Shown here: positions 35,550 through 64,000 of the stretch, piece by piece
Position numbering within the stretch: the stretch's first letter is position 1
Layout of the letters: each line of letters begins with the position of its first letter
Origin: TPA_inf: Saccharomyces
Taxonomy: Eukaryota
Assembly (NCBI GenBank): GCA_000146045.2
Contig: BK006937.2
Coordinates: 252,621 to 316,620 of the forward strand
Length of the DNA stretch: 64,000 bases
Direction of reading: 5' to 3'
Position numbers and translations under genes: made by a program
Notes under the pieces: generated by a model
Told to the model about the DNA's origin: nothing
The model's input: the letters and a program-made list of their open reading frames with translations, nothing else
Database searches by the model: none

Positions 35550-36638
35550 CTATGTAAAAATATGTTCCCTATAAAAGTGATGCTCTTCCGGAACGTTTTC
35601 TTTTTCCCACAAATCTCGTTGAAACCTGAACCAATCTGGTAATTCAGAATCACAGGGTATCCTTATTTTGACGTTATCTTTTCCCCTTGCTTTATAATAG
35701 CCATAATCTCCATTTTCTTTTTTATTAAATGCTAATCTATACCTATGGCCAAAAATTCCTAGGTCAGAAGAGGTTTTCTTCAAATCGTCTCCTAGAACTC
35801 CACTTACTTGTAATACTTTATTATTTTTCACTTTGGTTTCGATTTGATTTATTAATGTCAAAAGCCGCTGAGGCACTTCTGGCTCTCTGCAAAGGTCATC
35901 TTCATTTACTCTAATAAGTTTGCCAGAATTGGCCTTATACTCTATCGAATGCGTCCTATTATTCTCAAGGGGCAATTTTTTTGCTTTGTTGTCCACAATT
36001 GTCTTATTATCCTTCTCCTGTTCTATCTCAATGTTAATTATTTCTAGAAATGTTTCCGCAAAATAATTTCTATTCTTACCAGAAAATAATCTGTACTCAT
36101 TTATGATTGATGCAATATTCCATTTCTGAATTTTTCGAAGTATACCAATGACCAACGCGGTCTTATCTACCAATAAAACATTATAATTATCCACATTCAA
36201 TAATGTTTTGAAAGTTCTTTTTAAACACGTGCTCTTAATCAGCATTAAGTCATCATTGTCAGTCAAGTGGTAAGCCAATTCCTCCTGAATTACAGGATCC
36301 CCTGTAGTAGAATTTTGTGACCCATTTGCAGTGGATTTTTTCTTTTCTTCCTGTAATGATAGAGTACTGTTATTATTCGAATATAAATTTGCGTTAGATA
36401 CAGAAGAGCTTTTTACCGGAACTGCCGCAGCCGAGAAATCAGACATCCTTAAAACAATCCATTTTATGGATGATCTTGTGAAAAAATCTTTGAAAAACTT
36501 GGATGGTTCTTGACCTCCAATAAATATAGCTGTCTTTAAATTGAGAGTTTCCAGAAAGGATAAATTTAATGTCTCCACTTTAGAACATCTATATATTCCT
36601 TCTTCAGCAATCCCAAAGTTAGCAGGTGGAACCAGCAT
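35550..36638 (-). CDS. OCA4: Cytoplasmic protein-tyrosine-phosphatase-like (Oca family) protein
   Basis: 362-aa ORF lying convergent with CDC50. Confidence 0.75.
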   Translation of the reverse strand: MLVPPANFGIAEEGIYRCSKVETLNLSFLETLNLKTAIFIGGQEPSKFFKDFFTRSSIKWIVLRMSDFSAAAVPVKSSSVSNANLYSNNNSTLSLQEEKKKSTANGSQNSTTGDPVIQEELAYHLTDNDDLMLIKSTCLKRTFKTLLNVDNYNVLLVDKTALVIGILRKIQKWNIASIINEYRLFSGKNRNYFAETFLEIINIEIEQEKDNKTIVDNKAKKLPLENNRTHSIEYKANSGKLIRVNEDDLCREPEVPQRLLTLINQIETKVKNNKVLQVSGVLGDDLKKTSSDLGIFGHRYRLAFNKKENGDYGYYKARGKDNVKIRIPCDSELPDWFRFQRDLWEKENVPEEHHFYREHIFT

Positions 36639-37394
36639 TATGAATTCAGGTTATGGATCGCACCAGTGCTGTAAGTGTCTCTCTTTTTATTCTACGATCT
36701 CCATATAACAACCACATCTCATTTCTTTACCTTACTGTCCATTTAATGCTAGAAAACTTCCGAATATTGTATTATTATTACCCGGATATGTCAAGGCGGT
36801 ATATTAAGATGTTCCTTTCAAAAGTTTCATTATACCGCATACGGTAAGGACAGCCATAAGTAGTTTTACTGATAAAATATGGGGCTAAAGAACTGTATAT
36901 TTATGGATAGCACTAAAAGTAAAGATTTTCCCCGTGTCCTGACTTGGAGAAACAAAATTTCATTGTCATAAAAAACTTTTAAAATATGATATTCAAAGCT
37001 TGAGCATTGGGCTTCTGGATGACAGTTCTAATCAAGTTGGGTCTAAGGATATTGCATGTATACAAAGGATTCTTTCGGAAAGTAATCCTGAAATATTTTT
37101 TTTTTTCGTCTGAACATACGAAAGTAAATAAAAAAAGTTCAATGCATGCCTTCCTATGCAAGATTTATAAAAGGTGAACAGGTCAGGAGCAGCCACATCT
37201 CAATAAAGGCAGTTAAAGACGGTGATGTAGGTGCAGAAAGAGAAAGTGAACAAAGGATGATTTGAGATGTGTAATGATTCGTTTGAGCAGCAACAACTGC
37301 TAAGATATTCATACTAATAGGCCACTTCACACATTATGCCTTGGAGAATATCCTGCATTGCTCCTTTTATAGTATAGTCTATTCAGCACTAACA

Positions 37395-37590
37395 AGCAAA
37401 GCGAACATAATGGTAAAACTAACTTCAACTGTTGCTGGTGTCGCCTGCATCGCTGGCCCTCCCCTCCACTACGGCCATTTTAGCACAACTTGAATGAGTC
37501 AACTTGGTTGAGTTGCATGTTAACGTCTCTGATATCAGAGCTCACTTGCTCAATAATACATGTTACAAACTGCCCACTAAATTGAACACT
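37395..37590 (+). pseudogene. Degenerate relic of a PAU (seripauperin) gene
   Basis: atggtaaaactaacttcaactgttgctggtg... aligns with the PAU3 5' coding sequence and its leader (cagcactaacaa...ca atg gt[ac]aaa[ct]taacttcaa), including ...gtcaacttggt.gaatt.ggtgtt.acgtctc.gatatcagagctca.ttg.ctcaata.tac. It is interrupted by stop codons and frameshifts after about 27 codons. Confidence 0.6.
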
Positions 37591-38748
37591 CTAACATTAT
37601 ATTGACCTGAATTATTTGAAACGAAGTCAACAGAATGATCACTGATTTTCCAATGTACTCCGCTATGTTGAAGCTAGCCATCTTAAGCGATCAATGACGG
37701 TGCTCAATCATTCTTCGAAATGGGCTAAAAATGACAGTTGAAATATATTCTTTACGTTCATTTTTTTTCATACTGCAAACCCATTCTAGAACCAATGGTA
37801 AAAGTGACGGGAGTTGCTTTCTTTTACTATTTCAATGATAGCTATAGCCTGCATACACACAAAAGAATGTAAGTGATTGCGTGAAAGCTTAAAGTCTTAA
37901 AACTGTATTTTTTTCAACTCCTCCCATATATTAAACTGGTCCTCACAGTTCGCAGGATAACTAACAATTAAAAAAATTGTTCATATGGTTGTATTTCTTT
38001 CCGTCTCACATTATTAAAATTCAACGAAGAAGTTTCTACAATAACAGACAAGGGCCTACGATTACTATGTACTGGAAGGTGAGTCTTGAATTCATCCTCA
38101 GAGATTGTTCTAAAGACCAACAGAAATCCATATAGATTACCGTAGTTACTCTGATGGAATTTCAGAGTAAGACCCTTGTCAACTTCATCACTTTAAGTTG
38201 AGATGTAGAAAGACACTTTTGTAAGGTCTCCAACAAGTATATTTGATAAATAGACTGTTGAGCTACAAAAACTCAATGTGAAGTAAAAGACCTCATAAAT
38301 GATCGATTATCTGTTTGGCAGGTACTAATAAAACTGCATTGGTGTCTTTTTTCACTTACGTTAAAAAAAACTTTTTGCAATGATTTAAGCGTGCGTGAAG
38401 ATAACACTACAATCCATTTTAAAGCAACATCCACATTGAGTGTATACACCACAAAGGTTTTTTCAGGGCGTTTTTCTCGCCACTTTATGTTGACCAAAAT
38501 TATTAATGGAACTTACAACGTTTCCAAAAGTTAGTTAAATACATACGTCTATTTACTAAGCAAGAAATATATCATGACAAGCCCAAATATTATATTGTTA
38601 TGTTTACAAAAAAAAAATGGCTATATACATCAAGTCTGGAGGCTTTTTATAACAAGCAAGTGGGGTAACTTAGACATAAGATTGACTTCTTTGAATTCAA
38701 CAAAAATACATACTTTTGATGATTTCAATGGTAGAAGCAGTAGTAACT

Positions 38749-39092
38749 ATGCCGATGAAATAAAATCCTGATATCATCTATATAGTAGTACTCACGTTAC
38801 TAGTATATCATCTATAAGATGTAGGAAAATGTCATAAGAAATGAGAAACAGTCATTAAATTTAATGGAAACGAAATGCAAGGATTGGTGATGAGATAAGA
38901 TAATGAAACATAGAAAACGAAAGGAGAAATAACAGTAGTATTATTATTATTATTATTATGTAGAAATATTGACTCTCTCTTGTAGATTCATATATCTTCA
39001 AGGGGAACTTCTTGTACATTTTGTATACCTATATTATAGCGTTTAACAACAATGGAATCCCAACAATTACCAAAATTTTCACACATTCCTCA
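38749..39092 (+). mobile_element. Diverged solo delta (Ty1/Ty2 LTR)
   Basis: About 344 bp that align to the Ty1 LTR: ...acgttactagtata...aacgcaaggattg.t.atg...tgtagaaatat...caacaatggaatcccaacaatta...cacacattcctca. Confidence 0.65.
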
Positions 39093-39301
39093 TATAAAAT
39101 CTAAGCAATGACTAGAGAACTATCGCTAAATTATATAGAGCAAGGAAACCGAATAATTACATGTGTCAGATAAGAAAAAAATAAAGAAAACAACGCGTCA
39201 TGAAAAAGAGTTACTGAACCTTCAGATCCTACTTATTGTAATGCTTCGCGACATCCAATCCATTTAATAATCAATTTAAAACTAGAGTTGGTAGAGTTCC
39301 T

Positions 39302-39547
39302 TGTTGAACGTGATAACCCAAAAGCATAATACGAGTAATGTTTCAGTATTGCTATTATATGTTTACACAAGGAAAACATATAATAACAAACCTCTAATCC
39401 GGTAGTACTTAAGAAACTATAGTTTCTATGTACAAAAAGGTAACTATGTAATTCTTACATTTACATAACATATAGAAGGGTCCAATAAACTTACTAAACT
39501 TACTACCTTGTTGTATATAGGCTAGATCGTAATCCACTACGTCAACA
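39302..39547 (+). mobile_element. Solo LTR with TGTTGA...TCAACA termini, consistent with a Ty5 LTR
   Basis: A 246-bp element with terminal inverted repeats, immediately left of HMR-E. Ty5 is known to target silent chromatin. Confidence 0.5.
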
Positions 39548-39670
39548 TAAAAAAAACTTAAGGAGTTTGAATTTTATGTACAAACAGATTGTTAAAATAT
39601 AATATAAGATTATGGAAACGAACTTGCTCTAAAAAAAATTTAAAGTTTTATAAAATCCTCGCACTATCGC

Positions 39671-39908
39671 TGTTATACATGATGTCCCCAAAGCGTGTAC
39701 AAATAATTTTGTAGTATTGTATCGGTAATATCATACAAGAAGAAAATAGTTGCAAATCTCTAACCCACTAGTACTTAAAAAAACTGTAGTTTCAGTGCAA
39801 AAAAGTTTTAACATTACGTATCTTGTACCCTTTTTATTGCATATAGAAAGGTCAAATAATCCTTCACATCATGAAATATAAGCTAAATCGCATTTCTTTT
39901 CGTCCACA
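39671..39908 (+). mobile_element. Second, more diverged copy of the same LTR family, in direct orientation
   Basis: Aligns with 39302-39547, for example ctctaa.cc..tagtacttaa.aaaact.tagtttc and atatagaa.ggtc.aataa, and ends cgtccaca versus cgtcaaca. Confidence 0.4.
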
Positions 39909-40053
39909 TTTGCAAACAAAACTTTTCAATAATAATTTTATAAATAGTATCAATATATATATATATATATATATTTATTTGTTTACTTTTTCTATCAGTG
40001 TTTTCAATTTTTTATTAAACAATGTTTGATTTTTTAAATCGCAATTTAATACC

Positions 40054-40149
40054 TAAATATAAAAAATGTTATTATATTGCAAAAACCCATCAACCTTGAA
40101 AAAAAGTAGAAACGTTTTATTTAATTCTATCAATACATCATAAAATACG
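40054..40149. promoter_or_regulatory. HMR-E silencer (ORC/ACS, Rap1 and Abf1 sites)
   Basis: An ACS match, TAAATATAAAA (the complement TTTTATATTTA fits WTTTAYRTTTW), lies at 40054-40064. A Rap1-like AAACCCATCAACC lies at about 40083-40098 and an Abf1 consensus ATCATAAAATACG (RTCRYN5ACG) at 40137-40149. An (AT)n tract at 39953-39976 is adjacent. Confidence 0.7.
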
Positions 40150-40558
40150 AACGATCCCCGTCCAAGTTATGAGCTTAATCTTCCATAAAAATATTTGAAA
40201 GCAATAGATCATGTACTAAACTAAAATCAGGGAAATTAAGACTCCTTTTGAAGTAATACCTATTACTTACTAATACGTTTGAGAATAAGCGCAGGTACTC
40301 CTGGTTTTTGTTAAAACTACAAATTTATACTTAGCATTACGAAGATTCTCGATTCCGAAAAACAAAAATTTTATCGTCATATACAAATCTAGAAATTACC
40401 AGAGCTATCCATCTTGTTCAAGAAGGTAGGCGAGGACATTATCTATCAGTACAAACATCTTAGTAGTGTCTGAGGAGAGGGTTGATTGTTTATGTATTTT
40501 TGCGAAATATATATATATATATATTCTACACAGATATATACATATTTGTTTTTCGGGC

Positions 40559-40918
40559 TCATTCTTTCTTCTTTGCCAGAGGCTCACCGCTCAAGAGGTC
40601 CGCTAATTCTGGAGCGATTGTTATTGTTTTTTCTTTTCTTCTTCTATTCGAAACCCAGTTTTTGATTTGAATGCGAGATAAACTGGTATTCTTCATTAGA
40701 TTCTCTAGGCCCTTGGTATCTAGATATGGGTTCTCGATGTTCTTTGCAAACCAACTTTCTAGTATTCGGACATTTTCTTTTGTAAACCGGTGTCCTCTGT
40801 AAGGTTTAGTACTTTTGTTTATCATATCTTGAGTTACCACATTAAATACCAACCCATCCGCCGATTTATTTTTCTGTGTAAGTTGATAATTACTTCTATC
40901 GTTTTCTATGCTGCGCAT
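40559..40918 (-). CDS. HMRA2: Silent a2 ORF (the 119-aa C-terminal alpha2-homeodomain segment)
   Basis: The ATG at 40918-40916 gives [13 protein letters not shown]...[11 protein letters not shown]..., which is identical to the C-terminal part of the alpha2 homeodomain protein. The full open frame runs to 41176 (205 aa) and matches alpha2 from [11 protein letters not shown] onward. Confidence 0.85.
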
Positions 40919-41214
40919 TTCTTTGAGTAATACAGTAATGGTAGTAGTGAGTTGAGATGTTGTTTGCAACAACTTCTTCTCCTCATCACTAATCTTACGG
41001 TTTTTGTTGGCCCTAGATAAGAATCCTAATATATCCCTTAATTCAACTTCTTCTTCTGTTGTTACACTCTCTGGTAACTTAGGTAAATTACAGCAAATAG
41101 AAAAGAGCTTTTTATTCTTGATTTTTGTTCTTTCGGGGAAACTGTATAAAACTTCCAAAAAGGAAAAGTAAAACAATACATCTCCTTATATCAAAGAAAA
41201 TCAAGAAGGACAAC

Positions 41215-41701
41215 ATGGATGATATTTGTAGTATGGCGGAAAACATAAACAGAACTCTGTTTAACATTCTAGGTACTGAGATTGATGAAATCAATCTCAA
41301 TACTAATAATCTTTATAATGTATGTTTTCATTTCAAGGATAGCCTTTGAATCAATTTACTAACAATACTTCAGTTTATAATGGAAAGTAATTTGACTAAA
41401 GTAGAGCAACATACATTACACAAAAATATTTCTAACAATAGGTTAGAAATATACCACCACATTAAAAAAGAGAAGAGCCCAAAGGGAAAATCATCAATAT
41501 CACCCCAAGCACGGGCATTTTTAGAACAGGTTTTTAGAAGAAAGCAAAGCCTTAATTCCAAGGAAAAAGAAGAAGTTGCAAAGAAATGTGGCATTACTCC
41601 ACTTCAAGTAAGAGTTTGGGTATGTAATATGAGAATCAAACTTAAATATATCCTATACTAACAATTTGTAGTTCATAAATAAACGTATGAGATCTAAATA
41701 A
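41215..41701 (+). CDS. HMRA1: Silent a1 homeodomain gene with three exons
   Basis: Exons at 41215-41319, 41374-41619 and 41672-41701 give 126 aa plus a stop. Both introns have GTATGT donors, TACTAAC branchpoints and AG acceptors. The spliced product ends ...PLQVRVWFINKRMRSK, restoring the WFxNxR homeodomain helix 3. Confidence 0.85.
41320..41373 (+). other. a1 intron 1 (54 nt)
   Basis: GTATGT...TACTAAC...CAG. Confidence 0.8.
41620..41671 (+). other. a1 intron 2 (52 nt)
   Basis: GTATGT...TACTAAC...TAG. Confidence 0.8.
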
Positions 41702-41747
41702 ATTCGTTTTCAATGATTAAAATAGCATAGTCGGGTTTTTCTTTTAG

Positions 41748-41771
41748 TTTCAGCTTTCCGCAACAGTAAAA
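41748..41771 (+). other. HO endonuclease recognition sequence at the Ya/Z1 junction
   Basis: tttcagctttccgcaacagtaaaa matches the MATa HO site; it is kept uncut here by silencing. Confidence 0.7.
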
Positions 41772-42184
41772 TTTTATAAACCCTGGTTTTGGTTTTGTAG
41801 AGTGGTTGACGAATAATTATGCTGAAGTACGTGGTGACGGATATTGGGAAGATGTGTTTGTACATTTGGCCTTATAGAGTGTGGTCGTGGCGGAGGTTGT
41901 TTATCTTTCGAGTACTGAATGTTGTCAGTATAGCTATCCTATTTGAAACTCCCCATCGTCTTGCTCTTGTTCTCAATGTTTGTTTATATACTCATATTTC
42001 TATGTGTTTATACAATTGCTATTGTTTATATAATGTAGTGACATTTTCTCTTAATCTTATACTAATTTCTATGACATTTATATAAGAAGAGACTTATGAT
42101 CAACATAATTTTGCAAACTTTGAGAGAAATATGTCTTTCTACTGCGATAAAGTTATTATTTAGATTACATGTCACCAACATTTT

Positions 42185-42300
42185 CGTATATGGCGATATA
42201 ATTTATCATGTTTTGGTATGATAATTTAATTTTTAAAAAAACAAATTTAATTGACCTCATTAATTAATATTTATTAATACCTTTAAATGTTGAGGTAAAT
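42185..42300. promoter_or_regulatory. Putative HMR-I silencer region
   Basis: Lies between Z1 and the delta. It has an Abf1 consensus on the reverse strand (cgtatatggcgat = CGTN5RYGAY) at 42185-42197 and a 10/11 ACS match (atttaattttt) at about 42226. The assignment is positional and weak. Confidence 0.35.
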
Positions 42301-42382
42301 AGCTATTTTCTCTCTTCTTTTCCTTTAGTTGGAATTTGCACAAGAAAATGTTTTTCCACACACTTTAGCGTTTTTTCCTAAA

Positions 42383-42710
42383 TGTTGGAATAAAAAACAA
42401 CTATCATCTATCAACTAGTAGTCACACTACCAATGTGTTATCATTATACTGTGTTAAACAATGACATAAGGTATGAAAATTTGTCAACGAAGTTAGAGAA
42501 AGCTGGATGCAAGGATTGATAATGTGGTAGGAAAATGAAACATATAACGGAATGAGGAATAATCGTAATATCAGTATATAGAAATATAGATTCCCTTTTG
42601 AGGATTCCTATATCCTCGAGGAGAACTTCTAGTATATTCTATATACCTAATATTATTACTTTTATCTACAATGCAACCCCACAATAATATAAAAATTCAC
42701 CAATTCCGCA
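42383..42710 (+). mobile_element. Ty1 solo delta LTR
   Basis: Begins tgttggaata and matches the Ty1 LTR along its length (...ggaatgaggaataatcgtaata...gaggattcctatatcctcgaggagaacttctagtata...). It lies about 150 bp upstream of a tRNA gene, the classical Ty1 target window. Confidence 0.8.
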
Positions 42711-42863
42711 TCTGCAGATTACTTTCCTAAATTTGCATATAGAATTGTCAAGCGCAAATCCGACGTCGATTCCGCGGCGGATGGGTCATTCTAGGTCATT
42801 CTACCAATTTTATTTGAGACCAGGTTTATTCAACCGGTAACATAGAAATATTCATACAATTAA

Positions 42864-42936
42864 GCTTCTATGGCCAAGTTGGTAAGGCGCCACACTAGTA
42901 ATGTGGAGATCATCGGTTCAAATCCGATTGGAAGCA
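42864..42936 (+). tRNA. tT(AGU): tRNA-Thr (anticodon AGT)
   Basis: A 73-nt sequence, gcttctatggccaagttggtaaggcgccacactagtaatgtggagatcatcggttcaaatccgattggaagca, with an acceptor stem pairing GCTTCTA with TGGAAGC, a D-loop AGTTGGTAA and a T-loop GGTTCAAATCC. This gene is the known right-hand boundary element of HMR heterochromatin. Confidence 0.9.
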
Positions 42937-42943
42937 TTTTTTA
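42937..42943 (+). terminator. Pol III T-run terminator
   Basis: A run of six T's directly after the tRNA 3' end (ttttttatcac). Confidence 0.6.
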
Positions 42944-44428
42944 TCACGTTATTCGGTGACACCCAGGTTGCCGCCGCGTTCGCGTCCATCGTCATCTGAA
43001 AAATAATGAATATTAATGGACCTTGTGCCCCATAAAGGTTCCATGTTCCATAAGTCTTCAATAATACTTTTGTATATTAAATTTACCGTTATTCGGAGAT
43101 CTCTTACGGCTTATGATTTTCTTTACATTCCAGGCCGCCTTTTGATGACATTCAGTGCGTCACGACGCGAATAGGGCTTTGAAAGCCTTAATGTGGAGTA
43201 AATAAATATATGAATGCAATAAGTAAACATAAGACGAGTTCTTCTATATCCGGTGTACCTAATAATATAGATTTTGCCAACAATGGAATCTCATTACCCA
43301 TCCCAAGATAAAATATTGATCAAGGCATGGGCCACCAACATAGGAATACGCAAAATAGGATTGATATTTTTACATATTATATTATCTTTCTTCTTCTGTC
43401 TCAAATATAGCTCTTCTCCTATTTAAAAAATTATCAATTCTTGAATCTCAACTTCCATTAAATTTGATGATTGTTTCCCAATATCGATGTCATCTTTTTA
43501 CACTGTAAATTATAATTTACTAGGAACATGAATACTGATCAATGGATGATAGTTGATTCTTATTGCAATAAAAAGTACTTTCTAAGACGCTAGGACTTCT
43601 AAACACAGATATTATGAAAATGCCAAAAAATACAGAATATTTTCCTTCTTTTCACTATAACAAGTAGTAAGAAATTAAGCAATATGGTAATTTGAGCTTA
43701 TCAGATAAAAGATCCTGGTAGTCTTGCAAAGGTGTGAGTACTTTTGATGAAACTAAGTTTCAGCGCAGCTATTTCAATTTTGGAACCTTTAAAGAAAGTT
43801 TAATCGAAACATTGAACGATCCAAAGCACAACTTTGTAGCGGGAAGTCACAAACAAATATAAAAAGTGTTAATAAACTGCCATCCTATGTTAGAATTGTG
43901 AAACTTTTTGGACTAATAAAAGGTTTTCAACATGGTGTTCCAAAGCACTTATTTCTAGGTTAGCTATGGTAACGAGTTTTAACGTAATCAAAACAATATA
44001 CAATTCAAGATCTGTATCATTTACACTAACACACCCCATTTTAATAGAGCTGAGTACTTCCTACATTTCTTTTGCATATGATATCGCCACTGCATCATTT
44101 CTGTAGTCGTAAAATTTCCTTCTCATTAAGACACCGAAAATAGCTAAGGATTATAACAAAACAAACAAATGCTCAAACAAAACTTTTAGTAAATCTTTTG
44201 AAATGTAAAAGTTACTTAGAATAACTAAAAAAAAAATATTACGCTATACCATATATTTCCATTCCCAATTTTATCGTTTTATAATAATATTCAGTTTCAA
44301 GAACAATGAATATATTTCAAACATTACATGCACTCTTGGGAGTAAGCTGCATCATAATAAATTAAAATTAACGCTTTAGAAAAAGAAATTTTGAGGTTAA
44401 AGGATGGAGGAAGAAATCGATACCAATT

Positions 44429-45985
44429 TCAACTTTGATCGACCTGTCTGACTGAAATTATTTCTGCGTTTTTCTTACTACAATTAGTACCATTCTCTTC
44501 AACTTCAATAGTTCTAACCATTGATTCTTCATCTGTCTCATCAAATCCCATCTTACCAGTCCAGCCATTGGATACCAAATAGTTGTGAAATTCAACGTCT
44601 TGCTTCATTAAATCGCTTTCAAGAGAATGTGGAACAAAGAAATATGTAATAATGATACCAATAAGACCACAAATTGCAGCAATAATAAAAGTCCATCTTG
44701 CACCCAAATTATCCCTAATGGGTTGGAAACATTCGACGCCTACTACAGAACCGATTTTACCAGTCACAGCAGATAAACCATAGAAAACACCTCTAACAGC
44801 GGTTGCTGACGCTTCACTACTAATAACACCAAGCATATCACCTGGTCCAGCATTACCTAACATATTCATGAATGCGTAGAAGATAATAAACAAGGGGGTG
44901 ATTTTTTTCAATTGGTCGTACGCACATCCAATGATTAGACCAAAGATGATGTACCCAGAGAAACCAAACATCAACGTATATTTACGACCAATACGATCGG
45001 ACAGATAAGCACCAATTGGTACACCCAGTACAGCTAAAACTCCCAACAGTAAGTTCCACTCTGCCACTTTTACTAAATCATTTTGGTCCTTGATAACGGA
45101 ACTGATAATTGTTGAACTGAAAATACCATTTGGGAAGGTAACAAAATCATACATAAACCATGTACCACATGTACCAAGTAACCTTTTCCAATAAAATTTC
45201 AATGCTAGGAAATATGGTATATTTCTCTTGATTCTACCTTTTTCATAGACTTCTGTAGTAGCAGTCTTCCATCTAAAATAGAACACACTCAATGGCCAGA
45301 AGCACCCTATTGCAAAAACAGTCCTCCAGATCGCCTCTAAATGTTTTGTTCCTGAACAGATTTTGTAGACGATTAAAAAGATGATCGTAGCAAATGGACC
45401 ACCGAAGGCTAGTGGCAAATTTGTCACCATAACCAGGATACCACCTCTTTTGGTAGTGGTATATTCATTAGCAGACTCATTAGCACTTAATGTACTGGTA
45501 GGATATTCTGCACCAACACCAATACCTACCAAACCTCTCATAACTGTTAACATCCAAAACATGCCAGGTACAGTAGTACCGTGAGAGGCAGCACACAGAG
45601 CACTACCAATAACCAAGATAGCAGTGGCCACAAGGATACAAGATTTTCTACTATAATAATCAGCAGCGATACCCATAAAGAATTGGCCAAAAATAATACC
45701 AACTAGGGCTGCGTTGGAAACTCTAGTCGACACTTTTGAGCTATAGTTTTTCTTACCGTACTCCATAACAAAAACCTTGTTTAGCATACTCATTGAACCA
45801 TTTACGTAACCATCACTTATCAGAGCAAAACCGGACGCAATGATTGTAACTATGTTTTTCCATTTATCTTTCTTTGAGGTTTCAGTACGGGTTGCACGCC
45901 TCTCGGCATCATATTTTATTATTCTAGGATTAGTGTTCTCGTTCACTTCCTTCTCATTTACCGATGTGATATCTTTGTCTTCCAT
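44429..45985 (-). CDS. GIT1: Glycerophosphoinositol/glycerophosphocholine permease (MFS)
   Basis: 518-aa ORF with 12 predicted transmembrane segments and MFS sugar/phosphate-transporter motifs. Confidence 0.9.
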   Translation of the reverse strand: MEDKDITSVNEKEVNENTNPRIIKYDAERRATRTETSKKDKWKNIVTIIASGFALISDGYVNGSMSMLNKVFVMEYGKKNYSSKVSTRVSNAALVGIIFGQFFMGIAADYYSRKSCILVATAILVIGSALCAASHGTTVPGMFWMLTVMRGLVGIGVGAEYPTSTLSANESANEYTTTKRGGILVMVTNLPLAFGGPFATIIFLIVYKICSGTKHLEAIWRTVFAIGCFWPLSVFYFRWKTATTEVYEKGRIKRNIPYFLALKFYWKRLLGTCGTWFMYDFVTFPNGIFSSTIISSVIKDQNDLVKVAEWNLLLGVLAVLGVPIGAYLSDRIGRKYTLMFGFSGYIIFGLIIGCAYDQLKKITPLFIIFYAFMNMLGNAGPGDMLGVISSEASATAVRGVFYGLSAVTGKIGSVVGVECFQPIRDNLGARWTFIIAAICGLIGIIITYFFVPHSLESDLMKQDVEFHNYLVSNGWTGKMGFDETDEESMVRTIEVEENGTNCSKKNAEIISVRQVDQS

Positions 45986-53038: not shown

Positions 53039-55180
53039 TATTGTCTATCATGGTTGCTTTATTCTTGGTGATATTACTCTCTGGGATTCGATGTGTTCTC
53101 ATCATCTGAAGGGTTTCCTATGTGTTGAAAGCCTATCCCACTAGACGGAGCCGCGCGCCAGCCGGGCGGATCCGAGACATCTTAGTCAGCTGAGACAAGA
53201 AAGGCACAGCTCTCGGACAGGAACTGCTGTCATATGAAAACCTAAAAATGTTTCCTGGAAATTCCATGACTGCGCAAAGTTTGATACGTTTATTGTTCTT
53301 CTCTACTACCGCACTTTCTATCTCGGAAACCTTTCAACTGAATGAACTATTGTTAATTGTATGGCGTGTGGCCTTGCTATTTCAGCAAATTTAGAGTAAA
53401 GTAAACTCCGTCGGACCAGTATAGTAACGAAACAAGCCATTGATTCTGCAGCATATTGCGACCAAAACCTGGAAATTGGTGGCTATGAGTTTTAATTTAT
53501 AATTATATGAAGACAAAGCTTGGAATGCTGAGTACTTTTTCTTCAATGCTGCTCACTGCCCAGAAGCGTTCAGAACAACTCTACTGGAGCCATTCTGCTT
53601 GAAGGAGGATAAAAATGCCAAGATCAAGTCTTTTAAAGACTCTATCCCTTTTCATCGGAAAAGCACTACAAGTTTATTCTACAGAAGTGGACAAACTGTG
53701 GAACTTGATCCATACTGAGTAAGTATGGAAGACTGTTAACTTGGAGGATTTTTCTCTGCTTTCTAAAGAAGGTTCACTGCTTTACACTCACCTAGGTTCT
53801 CATGAGTATTGCTAGCTAGTGCGAGTTTGATCTATACTTCACAGACTTTTAACACCCCGTTCTTTAAGTTTTCCCTGATTATCAAGCGGATTTCCAATTC
53901 TTATTCCCCACTATCGCACCTTTCTTATCTGAATTGTATTTTTGAGTGGCCTAACTGTAATCTTTTATTTTGTTTTCTAATTATTGAAGGCGGTTTCTCG
54001 AAACATTTCACGATTTCCAAAATTCAAGAATTGAAATTATGAACATAGAAGACAAAATGCCTTTTTTATCAACTATTATGAATTCTCTAGAAAGTGGTTG
54101 CAAAGGAAATAAATATGTATTTGCTGAGAGGAAAAGTTTGGAAGAACAAAAAGTATTTCTTTGATGGAGCTGATTATCAAGCATTCTTTACGGGGAGCTT
54201 TCGAAATTTTTTATATTCAAGGACATTTATGTTGTGTGGGTTATTAAACGTGGGACTTTGGAAATACATCCAAGAAGCACAATTGAGCTCTAACGATGAA
54301 CCGTTACCATAAAGATAGAGACATTTCTTTTGACTTAGAAGCTACATGGAGTACCAACTATTAATACACCTCTCCTAGAGAACATTTTTAAAATAGAATA
54401 AAATAAAGTAGCGCTCTCAACTACCCTTACACTTTTTTCCTTCATATCTGGCTAGAAAAGAGGGATTACATCTCGGAATCAAAGTTTTAATACTGCTACT
54501 ACGAACTGGTTACAATTCTATTTTTATCATACACGATACTTTGAACATCAACTTCTCTCAATACCATCCGCCTTCAGCGGCTACAATTACGTAATTGCAC
54601 CAAGGCATTCGCCGAGAGTTTACATATTTGCAGACCCTAACAGTATACGACTCCCAACACACGTTTAATGTTGTACGAATTCAAGAGATGGAAATATTTC
54701 TTCCGCGGAAGCCGTTTAAAGCAGACTGAATTTAGGCTTAGACAATAAGCTTCTGAACGAGGGTCCAAATCTAAAATTCGGATATTCTTTTTGACCGAAA
54801 GCGGAAACTTCACAGGCGCGCGTAAAAGGGTTTTTCAAGGCACCCCGGCACCCCTATAATTGGCATTCCCACATTCTGCGCATACGAATACACATGAGTG
54901 CCATAAAACAATACTCCACATACGAAACCTATGAAAGATGTATGATTCGTTCAGAAACAAGAGCATCTCCATAGAGATAATGAGATTGTGTGAAAGATGA
55001 GATATGGAGGATATGTGAGGTGCTAAATGAGCGTCTGTTAACGAATCGTTTAAGTAGTGATGACAGATGGAGGAACGGGTATAAATAGAGCTGCTTCAAC
55101 TATATGCCTTTGAGGTATGCGCTTTCATTTCACTATTTCTTGTTAAGATTACATCAGCACTAACAAACAAAACAAATACA

Positions 55181-55555
55181 ATGGTCAAATTAACTTCAAT
55201 CGCTGCTGGTGTTGCCGCCATCGCTGCCGGTATTGCCGCTGCCCCAGCCACTACCACTCTATCTCCATCTGACGAAAGGGTCAACTTGGTCGAATTGGGT
55301 GTTTACGTCTCCGATATCAGAGCTCATTTGGCTCAATACTACTTGTTTCAAGCAGCTCATCCAACTGAGACCTACCCAGTTGAGATTGCTGAAGCTGTTT
55401 TCAACTATGGTGACTTCACCACTATGTTGACTGGTATTCCAGCTGAACAAGTCACCAGAGTCATCACTGGTGTCCCATGGTACTCCACTAGATTGAGACC
55501 AGCCATCTCCAGTGCTCTATCTAAGGACGGTATCTACACTGCTATTCCAAAATAG
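55181..55555 (+). CDS. PAU3: Seripauperin (PAU family) cell-wall protein
   Basis: 124-aa [20 protein letters not shown]...[17 protein letters not shown]..., which is the PAU consensus. A TATA box tataaatag lies at about 55083. Confidence 0.85.
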
Positions 55556-62989: not shown

Positions 62990-63899
62990 CACTACTATAT
63001 TATAACTTAGTGAATAAAGAGTGTTACAATAGTGAGGTGCATATTATTCTAATGTAAGGTCTGTATAAGTACGAAATATTCTGAAGTGGCATCCAGTCAA
63101 GCAAATGGTAATATTAAGGAACTTTTAAGTTAATGACGTCATGGTAGTGCTCGTACTTCAAGTCAAAGTGTTTATGTATTATGGTTGAAGAATAGAATAT
63201 TTTTATGTTTAGGTGATTTTAGTGGTGATTTTTCTGTAATATTGACATAAGTGTATATAAATTAAGTGGTTAGTATACGGTGAAAAAGAGGTATAACGTA
63301 TGTATTAAGGGAATTTATACGATATTTGGGCCCGCCGAATGAGATATAGATATTAAAATGTGGATAATCGTGGGCTTTATGGGTAAATGGCACAGGGTAT
63401 AGACCGCTGAGGCAAGTGCCGTGCATAATGATGTGGGTGCATTTGGTACTGATTTAGTGAGAATGGGCCATGGATTGGAGTGTGAGAGTAGGGTAACTTG
63501 AGAGTGGTATATACTGTAGCATCCGTGTGCGTATGCCCCATCAATATAAGTGAAGGTGAGTATGGCATGTGGTGGTGGTATAGAGTGGTAGGGTAAGTAT
63601 GTATGTATTATTTACGATCATTTGTTAACGTTTCAATATGGTGGGTGAACAACAGTACAGTGAGTAGGACATGGTGGATGGTAGGGTAATAGTAGGGTAA
63701 GTGGTGGTGGAGTTGGATATGGGTAATTGGAGGGTAACGGTTATGATGGGCGGTGGATGGTGGTAGTAAGTAGAGAGATGGATGGTGGTTGGGAGTGGTA
63801 TGGTTGAGTGGGGCAGGGTAACGAGTGGGGAGGTAGGGTAATGTGAGGGTAGGTTTGGAGACAGGTAAAATCAGGGTTAGAATAGGGTAGTGTTAGGGT
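62990..63899. repeat. Subtelomeric X element (core X plus TTAGGG-containing subtelomeric repeats)
   Basis: The core region has an ACS match TTTTATGTTTA at 63201-63211 and an Abf1 consensus CGTGCATAATGAT (reverse RTCRYN5ACG) at 63419-63431. From about 63485 there are iterated (T)AGGGTAA/TTAGGG motifs (Tbf1-type sites). Boundaries are approximate. Confidence 0.55.
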
Positions 63900-64000
63900 A
63901 GTGTGTGGGTGTGGGTGTGTGGGTGTGGTGTGTGGGTGTGGTGTGTGTGGGTGTGGTGTGTGGGTGTGGGTGTGTGGGTGTGGTGGGTGTGGTGTGTGTG
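63900..64000 (+). repeat. Terminal telomeric TG1-3 repeat tract
   Basis: Irregular (TG)1-3 TGGG repeats, gtgtgtgggtgtgggtgtgtgggtgtggtg..., run to the end of the window with no Y' element. Confidence 0.95.

Follow-up and report, generated by a model that had tools for sequence, protein, structure and literature searches.

We analyze here a 64,000-nucleotide stretch of Saccharomyces DNA (the window) and, within it, the region at 40054-42300, which we identify, with a probability of about 98%, as HMRa, the silent mating-type cassette on the right arm of chromosome III of Saccharomyces cerevisiae, in S288C-type sequence. A sequence-only reading of the same DNA had proposed a complete HMRa cassette with both silencers, and the elements it described are all present in that interval; nothing contradicting the HMRa assignment turned up in our analyses. 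The locus is an already known, intensively studied textbook case, not a discovery, and is one of the founding models in the study of heterochromatin, silencers, barrier elements and donor-directed gene conversion. The value of the present work lies in annotation: it places the window at the right end of S. cerevisiae chromosome III, as its last 64 kb, accounts for intact a1 and a2 genes in a non-expressed context and provides exact coordinates for X, Ya, Z1, the E and I silencers and the tRNA barrier.

The cassette sits between OCA4 and GIT1, with a tRNA-Thr gene to its right. Exact S288C protein matches were obtained for Oca4p (35550-36638, minus strand), and exact protein matches likewise for YCR095W-A, a 52-aa open reading frame (ORF) at 37019-37177 on the plus strand, and for Git1p (44429-45985, minus strand). 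The a1 product is identical to S288C Hmra1p (NP_010021.1, MATA1_YEASX) and the a2 product to NP_010020.1, the S288C 'homeodomain mating type protein a2'. At its end (63901-64000), some 22 kb beyond the cassette on the right, the window runs into TG1-3 telomeric repeats. Gene products, neighbours and terminal telomere repeats thus establish this as the right-arm HMRa locus of chromosome III, and the exact protein matches, the tRNA-Thr gene and the TG1-3 end identify the window as the right end of that chromosome, in agreement with S288C chrIII coordinates 252,621-316,620.

Contigs were looked up by the exact a2 protein, which returned ten S. cerevisiae chromosome III assembly loci. Eight of these share the context of the window (MFS transporter/GIT1, a1, a2, the 52-aa ORF, OCA4 and CDC50) and align with it at 98-100% along the whole or the greater part of their sequence, the exceptions in some strains being insertions or divergence within the interval between the tRNA gene and GIT1; one of them, L006, is 100% identical to the window over all of its 12,360 bp. 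The remaining two, L001 and L009, lie in MAT context, with TAF2, RasGEF/BUD5-type and SPX-CitMHS/PHO87-type neighbours. HindIII sites at 37885 and 42862 delimit a fragment of 4,983 bp, equal in length to the HindIII-HMR-HindIII fragment used in PMC3355138. Compared with the S288C HMR locus (HMRA1/YCR097W, HMRA2/YCR096C, HMR-E = ARS317, HMR-I = ARS318), the window agrees on everything tested: a1, a2, Oca4, YCR095W-A and Git1 are exact, silencer sites and chromatin immunoprecipitation (ChIP) primers are found verbatim, the HindIII fragment has the same length, and the adjacent tRNA-Thr barrier and the telomeric chromosome end are likewise present, with no difference detected. Of the hallmarks of HMR that can be read from sequence, all are seen in the window apart from the ORC site of HMR-I, for which there is a candidate.

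The features of the locus are given below; ORC denotes the origin recognition complex and ACS the consensus sequence of autonomously replicating sequences (ARS).

40054-40064, minus strand: HMR-E ORC site (ACS, A element), TTTTATATTTA; exact 11/11 ACS match
40082-40096, plus strand: HMR-E Rap1 site (E element), AAAACCCATCAACCT; verbatim the published Rap1 binding site, occurring once in the window
40137-40149, plus strand: HMR-E Abf1 site (B element), ATCATAAAATACG; exact match to RTCRYNNNNNACG
40413-41116: X, 704 bp; about 100% identical to L001 and L009
40559-40918, minus strand: a2 (HMRA2) ORF, 119 aa; wholly inside X
41117-41758: Ya, 642 bp; a-specific, not alignable with the Y regions of L001 and L009
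41215-41701, plus strand: a1 (HMRA1) gene, 126 aa; exons 41215-41319, 41374-41619 and 41672-41701
41320-41373 (54 nt) and 41620-41671 (52 nt), plus strand: a1 introns; both GTATGT...TACTAAC...AG, canonical for yeast
41759-41997: Z1, 239 bp; common to MAT, beginning with the HO recognition sequence
41759-41782, plus strand: HO endonuclease recognition sequence, CGCAACAGTAAAATTTTATAAACC; at the Y/Z1 junction, with Z11 T to A at 41769
42185-42197, minus strand: HMR-I Abf1 site, ATCGCCATATACG; exact Abf1 consensus
42263-42273, plus strand: candidate HMR-I ORC site, ACS-like, ATTAATATTTA; 10/11 match
42864-42936, plus strand: tRNA-Thr(AGT), right-hand heterochromatin barrier; ARAGORN, Rfam tRNA 70.1 bits

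The limits of the cassette were set by comparison with the two MAT-context loci. Alignments of L001 and L009 to the window are confined to 40412-42003/42029; bin-wise identity is about 100% from about 40412 to about 41117, the middle is then not alignable, and 50-bp bins from about 41750 to 41997 again reach 94-100%, with homology breaking abruptly at both outer ends (about 40412 and about 41997). The resulting 1,586-bp tract was divided into 704, 642 and 239 bp (sum 1,585), using lengths of X, Ya and Z1 reportedly given by Astell et al. in 1981 and Haber in 2012. To either side, the flanks at 39500-40411 and 41998-42900 were compared with the MAT-context loci by sensitive short-word BLAST. 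The right flank has no match there, and the left flank matches only through a (TA)n microsatellite and a few chance-level short AT-rich segments; the E and I elements are therefore specific to the HMR locus. This is the outcome anticipated by the sequence-only reading, according to which X and Z1 should match MAT and the silencers should be unique to HMR: in the alignment to the MAT-context loci, identity is about 100% in X and Z1, and MAT lacks the flanks with E and I. W and Z2, as found on the MAT side, bear no relation to the flanks of the window, and their absence separates HMR from HML.

The HMR-E sites lie about 270-360 bp to the left of X. The ORC site, one of three exact ACS matches in the 64-kb window, is identical to the published ORC binding site TAAATATAAAA, which occurs once in the window. 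This site and the Rap1 site AAAACCCATCAACCT are the HMR-E binding sites replaced by mutagenesis in PMC3355138. The Rap1 site has three mismatches to the Rap1 consensus ACACCCRYACAYM, in agreement with its description as a variant of that consensus (PMC3355138). Since the authentic site is such a variant, the pattern ACCCATNCA finds no Rap1 match at the E silencer, and the site was located with the published 15-mer. The claim that the E silencer carries textbook sites consequently stands for the exact ACS and Abf1 matches and for the presence of an authentic Rap1 site, and requires amendment in that the latter departs from the consensus. When 64 kb of matched composition was simulated 400 times, an exact ACS and an exact Abf1 consensus fell within 100 bp of each other in only 13 runs. 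Among the eight other HMR-context loci, the ORC and Rap1 sites are invariant while a nearby poly-A tract varies, and the Abf1 site is substituted in a single locus (L010), at a degenerate N position. The published 'HMR-E' ChIP amplicon maps uniquely to 40157-40308 (primers from PMC3139579). The contribution of the sites to silencing at HMR-E decreases from Rap1 to ORC to Abf1 (PMC3355138).

On the opposite side of the cassette, the HMR-I sites are found some 190-275 bp to the right of Z1. The exact Abf1 consensus is invariant in the eight other HMR-context loci and absent from the MAT loci, and the published 'HMR-I' ChIP amplicon has a single location in the window, 42086-42195, ending on this Abf1 site (primers from PMC3139579). 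The identity of HMR-I is confirmed by this mapping of published primers together with conservation across strains. At ARS318/HMR-I the Abf1 site is located 5′ of the ORC site and is essential for silencer function (PMC4825667); the order seen in the window, Abf1 followed by the ACS-like element, fits that arrangement. The element ATTAATATTTA is the sole ACS match with at most one mismatch in 42000-42450, and from this single 10/11 match and its position 3′ of the Abf1 site we infer the ORC site of HMR-I at 42263-42273. What had been called a putative I silencer is hence substantiated through the exact Abf1 consensus within the published HMR-I amplicon, its ORC component being a candidate, a 10/11 ACS match. 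HMR-I is auxiliary in silencing (PMC3355138) and unable to nucleate Sir proteins alone (PMC3923967).

Between the silencers, both mating-type genes are intact. The a1 product contains a homeodomain (Pfam PF00046, E = 1.4e-13), and its C-terminal 61 residues match the PDB 'mating-type protein a1' chains 1f43/1yrn (E = 1.2e-33); Ya contains the start codon of a1 and the greater part of its coding sequence. A homeodomain is also recognized in a2 (PF00046, E = 8.9e-10), which is equal to the last 119 aa of alpha2. On the 5′ side of the a2 ATG the minus-strand frame stays open as far as the X/Ya junction, reading as alpha2 sequence (KKLFSICC...), and the minus strand of X encodes the C-terminal 184 aa of alpha2 (KKLFSICC...KKKE). 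The homology search with a2 yielded no full-length S. cerevisiae alpha2 among its matches, and the long members of the a2 homology cluster are over-extended calls spanning the X/Ya junction. On the established view of the locus, only the a2 transcription start and promoter would lie in Ya, which would hold the divergent a1/a2 promoter. The notion of divergent a1 and a2 genes is accordingly upheld, with a1 on the plus and a2 on the minus strand, and is refined in that X contains the whole of the a2 ORF. A short distance 3′ of the a1 stop, near the Ya/Z1 junction, there is a third exact Abf1 consensus (ATCATTGAAAACG, 41705-41717, minus strand), which could be a chance match.

Several readings other than HMRa have to be weighed against this evidence. 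The genes and cassette arms would also suit an expressed MATa locus, given that MATa has a1, a2, X, Ya and Z1 of identical sequence and that the a2 protein look-up returned MAT-context loci too. The surroundings, however, are those of HMR: the neighbours are OCA4, YCR095W-A, tRNA-Thr and GIT1, not TAF2, BUD5 and PHO87; homology to the MAT-context loci ends with X and Z1, W and Z2 being missing; E and I silencer sites that are absent from MAT loci flank the cassette; and the telomere is about 22 kb away. We reject an active MATa on this flanking sequence and regard its probability as negligible. No more credible is an HML cassette carrying a-information (HMLa), as known from some strains, even though it too would be a silent a-information cassette between two silencers, and the position of HML is likewise close to a telomere. 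W and Z2 are common to HML and MAT, whereas homology in the window stops at X and Z1; the silencer sequences are the published HMR-E sites and the published HMR primers map here; and OCA4 and GIT1 are right-arm genes with YCR0xx names in S288C. The lack of W and Z2, together with the right-arm neighbours, leads us to dismiss HMLa.

A third alternative concerns the silencers. Single ACS, Abf1 and Rap1-like motifs are no commoner in the window than in shuffled sequence, and on the I side the ORC site is represented by one 10/11 match, whereas ACS matches with one mismatch are expected by chance about 1.2 times per kb, so that motif evidence alone is weak at HMR-I. These motif statistics would fit the view that only the genes are real and that the flanking 'silencer' motifs are chance matches in AT-rich DNA. 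Set against it, the E-side ORC and Rap1 sites are verbatim the sites mutated experimentally in PMC3355138, the exact ACS and Abf1 pair is rare in the simulations described above, the sites are kept in the eight other HMR-context loci while nearby bases vary, the published HMR-E and HMR-I amplicons map onto them, and loss of silencing upon their mutation is reported in the literature. Published sites, pair rarity, conservation and amplicon mapping lead us to reject chance motifs as an exceedingly unlikely explanation, and to retain HMRa with its two silencers.

The relationship of the window to the other mating-type loci can be stated in the same terms. MATa is alike in X and Z1, as judged by the approximately 100% identity to the MAT-context loci, and its Ya, a1 and a2 genes are the same as at HMRa. 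HML-alpha differs from HMR in its left-arm location, its Yalpha, W and Z2 sequences, its different silencer sequences and its lack of a tRNA barrier. It resembles HMR in the E and I elements that bracket it, with their ORC, Rap1 and Abf1 sites, in its silencing by Sir proteins and in its role as a donor in switching (PMC3355138, PMC3923967). MAT, unlike HMR, has W and Z2, BUD5 and TAF2 as neighbours and no E or I silencers, is expressed and is cut by HO (PMC5765346).

The two MAT-context loci merit some further description. The Y regions of L001 and L009 (5000-6000 in each) are neither clean Ya nor clean Yalpha, but Yalpha-like or mosaic, and no intact a1, alpha1 or alpha2 ORF was found in them. 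In L009 the Y region is 50-94% like Ya in patches, yet carries an alpha-type Y/Z junction (CTTCGCGCAACAG). These Y regions may be consensus artefacts of collapsed MATa/MATalpha diploid assemblies; L001 and L009 served to define the X and Z1 boundaries and are not suited to a Ya-to-Ya comparison. The window also contains (TA)n microsatellites at 40508-40525, inside X, and at 39953-39975, just to the left of HMR-E; in the former, the window is one TA unit longer than both MAT-context loci, the cassette arms being otherwise identical.

Z1 retains traces of coding sequence. Its frame 3 encodes a C-terminal remnant (...NFINPGFGFVEWLTNNYAEVRGDGYWEDVFVHLAL, followed by a stop codon) without an upstream ORF; the orphan C-terminal peptide encoded by Z1 (...GFVEWLTNNYAEVRGDGYWEDVFVHLAL, followed by a stop codon) we take to be the end of alpha1. 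An 88-aa ORF (41819-42085, plus strand) begins in Z1 and extends into the HMR-specific right flank; it is annotated as a gene in L004, L007 and L010, has no Pfam hit on record and presumably corresponds to the dubious ORF YCR097W-A. In the MAT copy of Z1 the same frame reaches 110 aa, with a different C-terminus.

Both the ORC and Rap1 sites and the ChIP primers taken from papers on HMR map uniquely in the window, and the function of the locus can be outlined from that literature. X and Z1 are the regions where a broken MAT pairs with its donor. According to published work on the identical sequence, HMR-E with its bound ORC, Rap1 and Abf1 would recruit Sir1 and the Sir2/3/4 complex, which would then cover the nucleosomes of the cassette, repressing a1 and a2 and keeping the HO site in Z1 from cleavage. 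HMR-I would act as a weaker, auxiliary silencer and as the replication origin ARS318, and the tRNA-Thr gene would halt silencing before GIT1. As a donor, the cassette would provide a-information: after an HO cut at MAT, the X and Z1 homologies would guide a gene conversion that replaces Y. Sir2, Sir3 and Sir4 are enriched at the HMR silencers and at the tRNA-Thr gene, with sharp boundaries a little left of the E-silencer sites and a little right of the tRNA (PMC3923967). The HO sites of the silent cassettes are protected by the SIR gene products, and the cassettes serve as donors for gene conversion at MAT (PMC5765346). Sir-dependent silencing and HO protection are matters of chromatin state, documented for the same sequence in PMC3923967, PMC3355138 and PMC5765346, and are attributed to the window on that basis.

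The HO recognition sequence carries the Z11 T to A change known as 'stuck' (stk), a mutation that renders cleavage by HO inefficient and is present at MATa in BY4741, an S288C derivative (PMC12405464). Position 41769, the eleventh base of Z1, is A in the window and in its identical twin L006, reading CGCAACAGTAAAA, and the equivalent base is T in the seven other HMR loci and in both MAT-context loci; among the nine HMR sequences compared, A at Z11 is thus limited to the window and L006. The Z11 A is the known stk-type allele and, in the set of loci compared, seems to be confined to the S288C lineage. It is the one feature of the locus that departs from the textbook account. Ray, White and Haber are said to have described the same substitution at HMRa in stk strains in 1991. 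An stk allele at HMRa goes back into MAT with each alpha-to-a switch, and copying of the Z11 allele into MAT would yield a poorly cleaved MATa-stk. It is very doubtful that this donor-borne variant is more than a laboratory-lineage polymorphism and has a population-level role, for instance as a naturally segregating brake on a-to-alpha switching that re-seeds MAT at each alpha-to-a switch; if true, such a reading would add little, the allele having reportedly been known since 1991. The presence of an stk-type HO allele at HMR does matter when mating-type switching is induced in S288C-derived strains.

Some 600 bp separate the tRNA-Thr gene from HMR-I on its left, consistent with the distance of about 600 bp between HMR-I and the tRNA gene (tDNA) in PMC3139579. 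With the primers of that study, the published 'HMR tDNA' amplicon maps uniquely to 42698-42964, and the 3′-tRNA and 5′-GIT1 amplicons map once each further to the right, in the expected order (PMC3139579). The gene is a barrier that shields neighbouring genes (PMC3139579, PMC3923967) and is part of the HMR system, though it falls outside the interval 40054-42300 originally delimited for the cassette. The reported Sir-bound domain begins at about 40.05 kb, a little left of the E-silencer sites, and goes no further than the tRNA-Thr gene, which ends at 42936 (PMC3923967). The proposal that the cassette explains the lack of ordinary genes across 36.8-44.4 kb accordingly does not hold for the whole stretch, the remainder of which has other content: three remnants resembling long terminal repeats (LTRs), the tRNA gene, YCR095W-A and a long region upstream of GIT1.

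The LTR-like remnants are as follows.

38756-39093, 42385-42711 and 43340-43568: degenerate LTR-like copies, mutually 66-71% identical

The copy at 42385-42711 starts with TGTTGGAATA, which we take to be the start found in Ty1/2 delta elements. Strains L003 and L007 have additional related LTR copies between the tRNA gene and GIT1, and the LTR content of this interval therefore varies between strains. Elsewhere in the gene-poor stretch, some 200 bp situated between YCR095W-A and HMR (37383-37576) are 74% identical to 55154-55359, a segment that contains a 21-bp tandem duplication at 55199-55239.

Near the chromosome end, the third exact ACS of the window (TTTTATGTTTA) is located at 63201-63211, just inside the TG1-3 repeats, and an exact Abf1 consensus follows at 63420-63432, about 220 bp away. 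As far as motifs can indicate, this pair beside the telomere has the layout expected of a subtelomeric core X element with putative proto-silencer sites.

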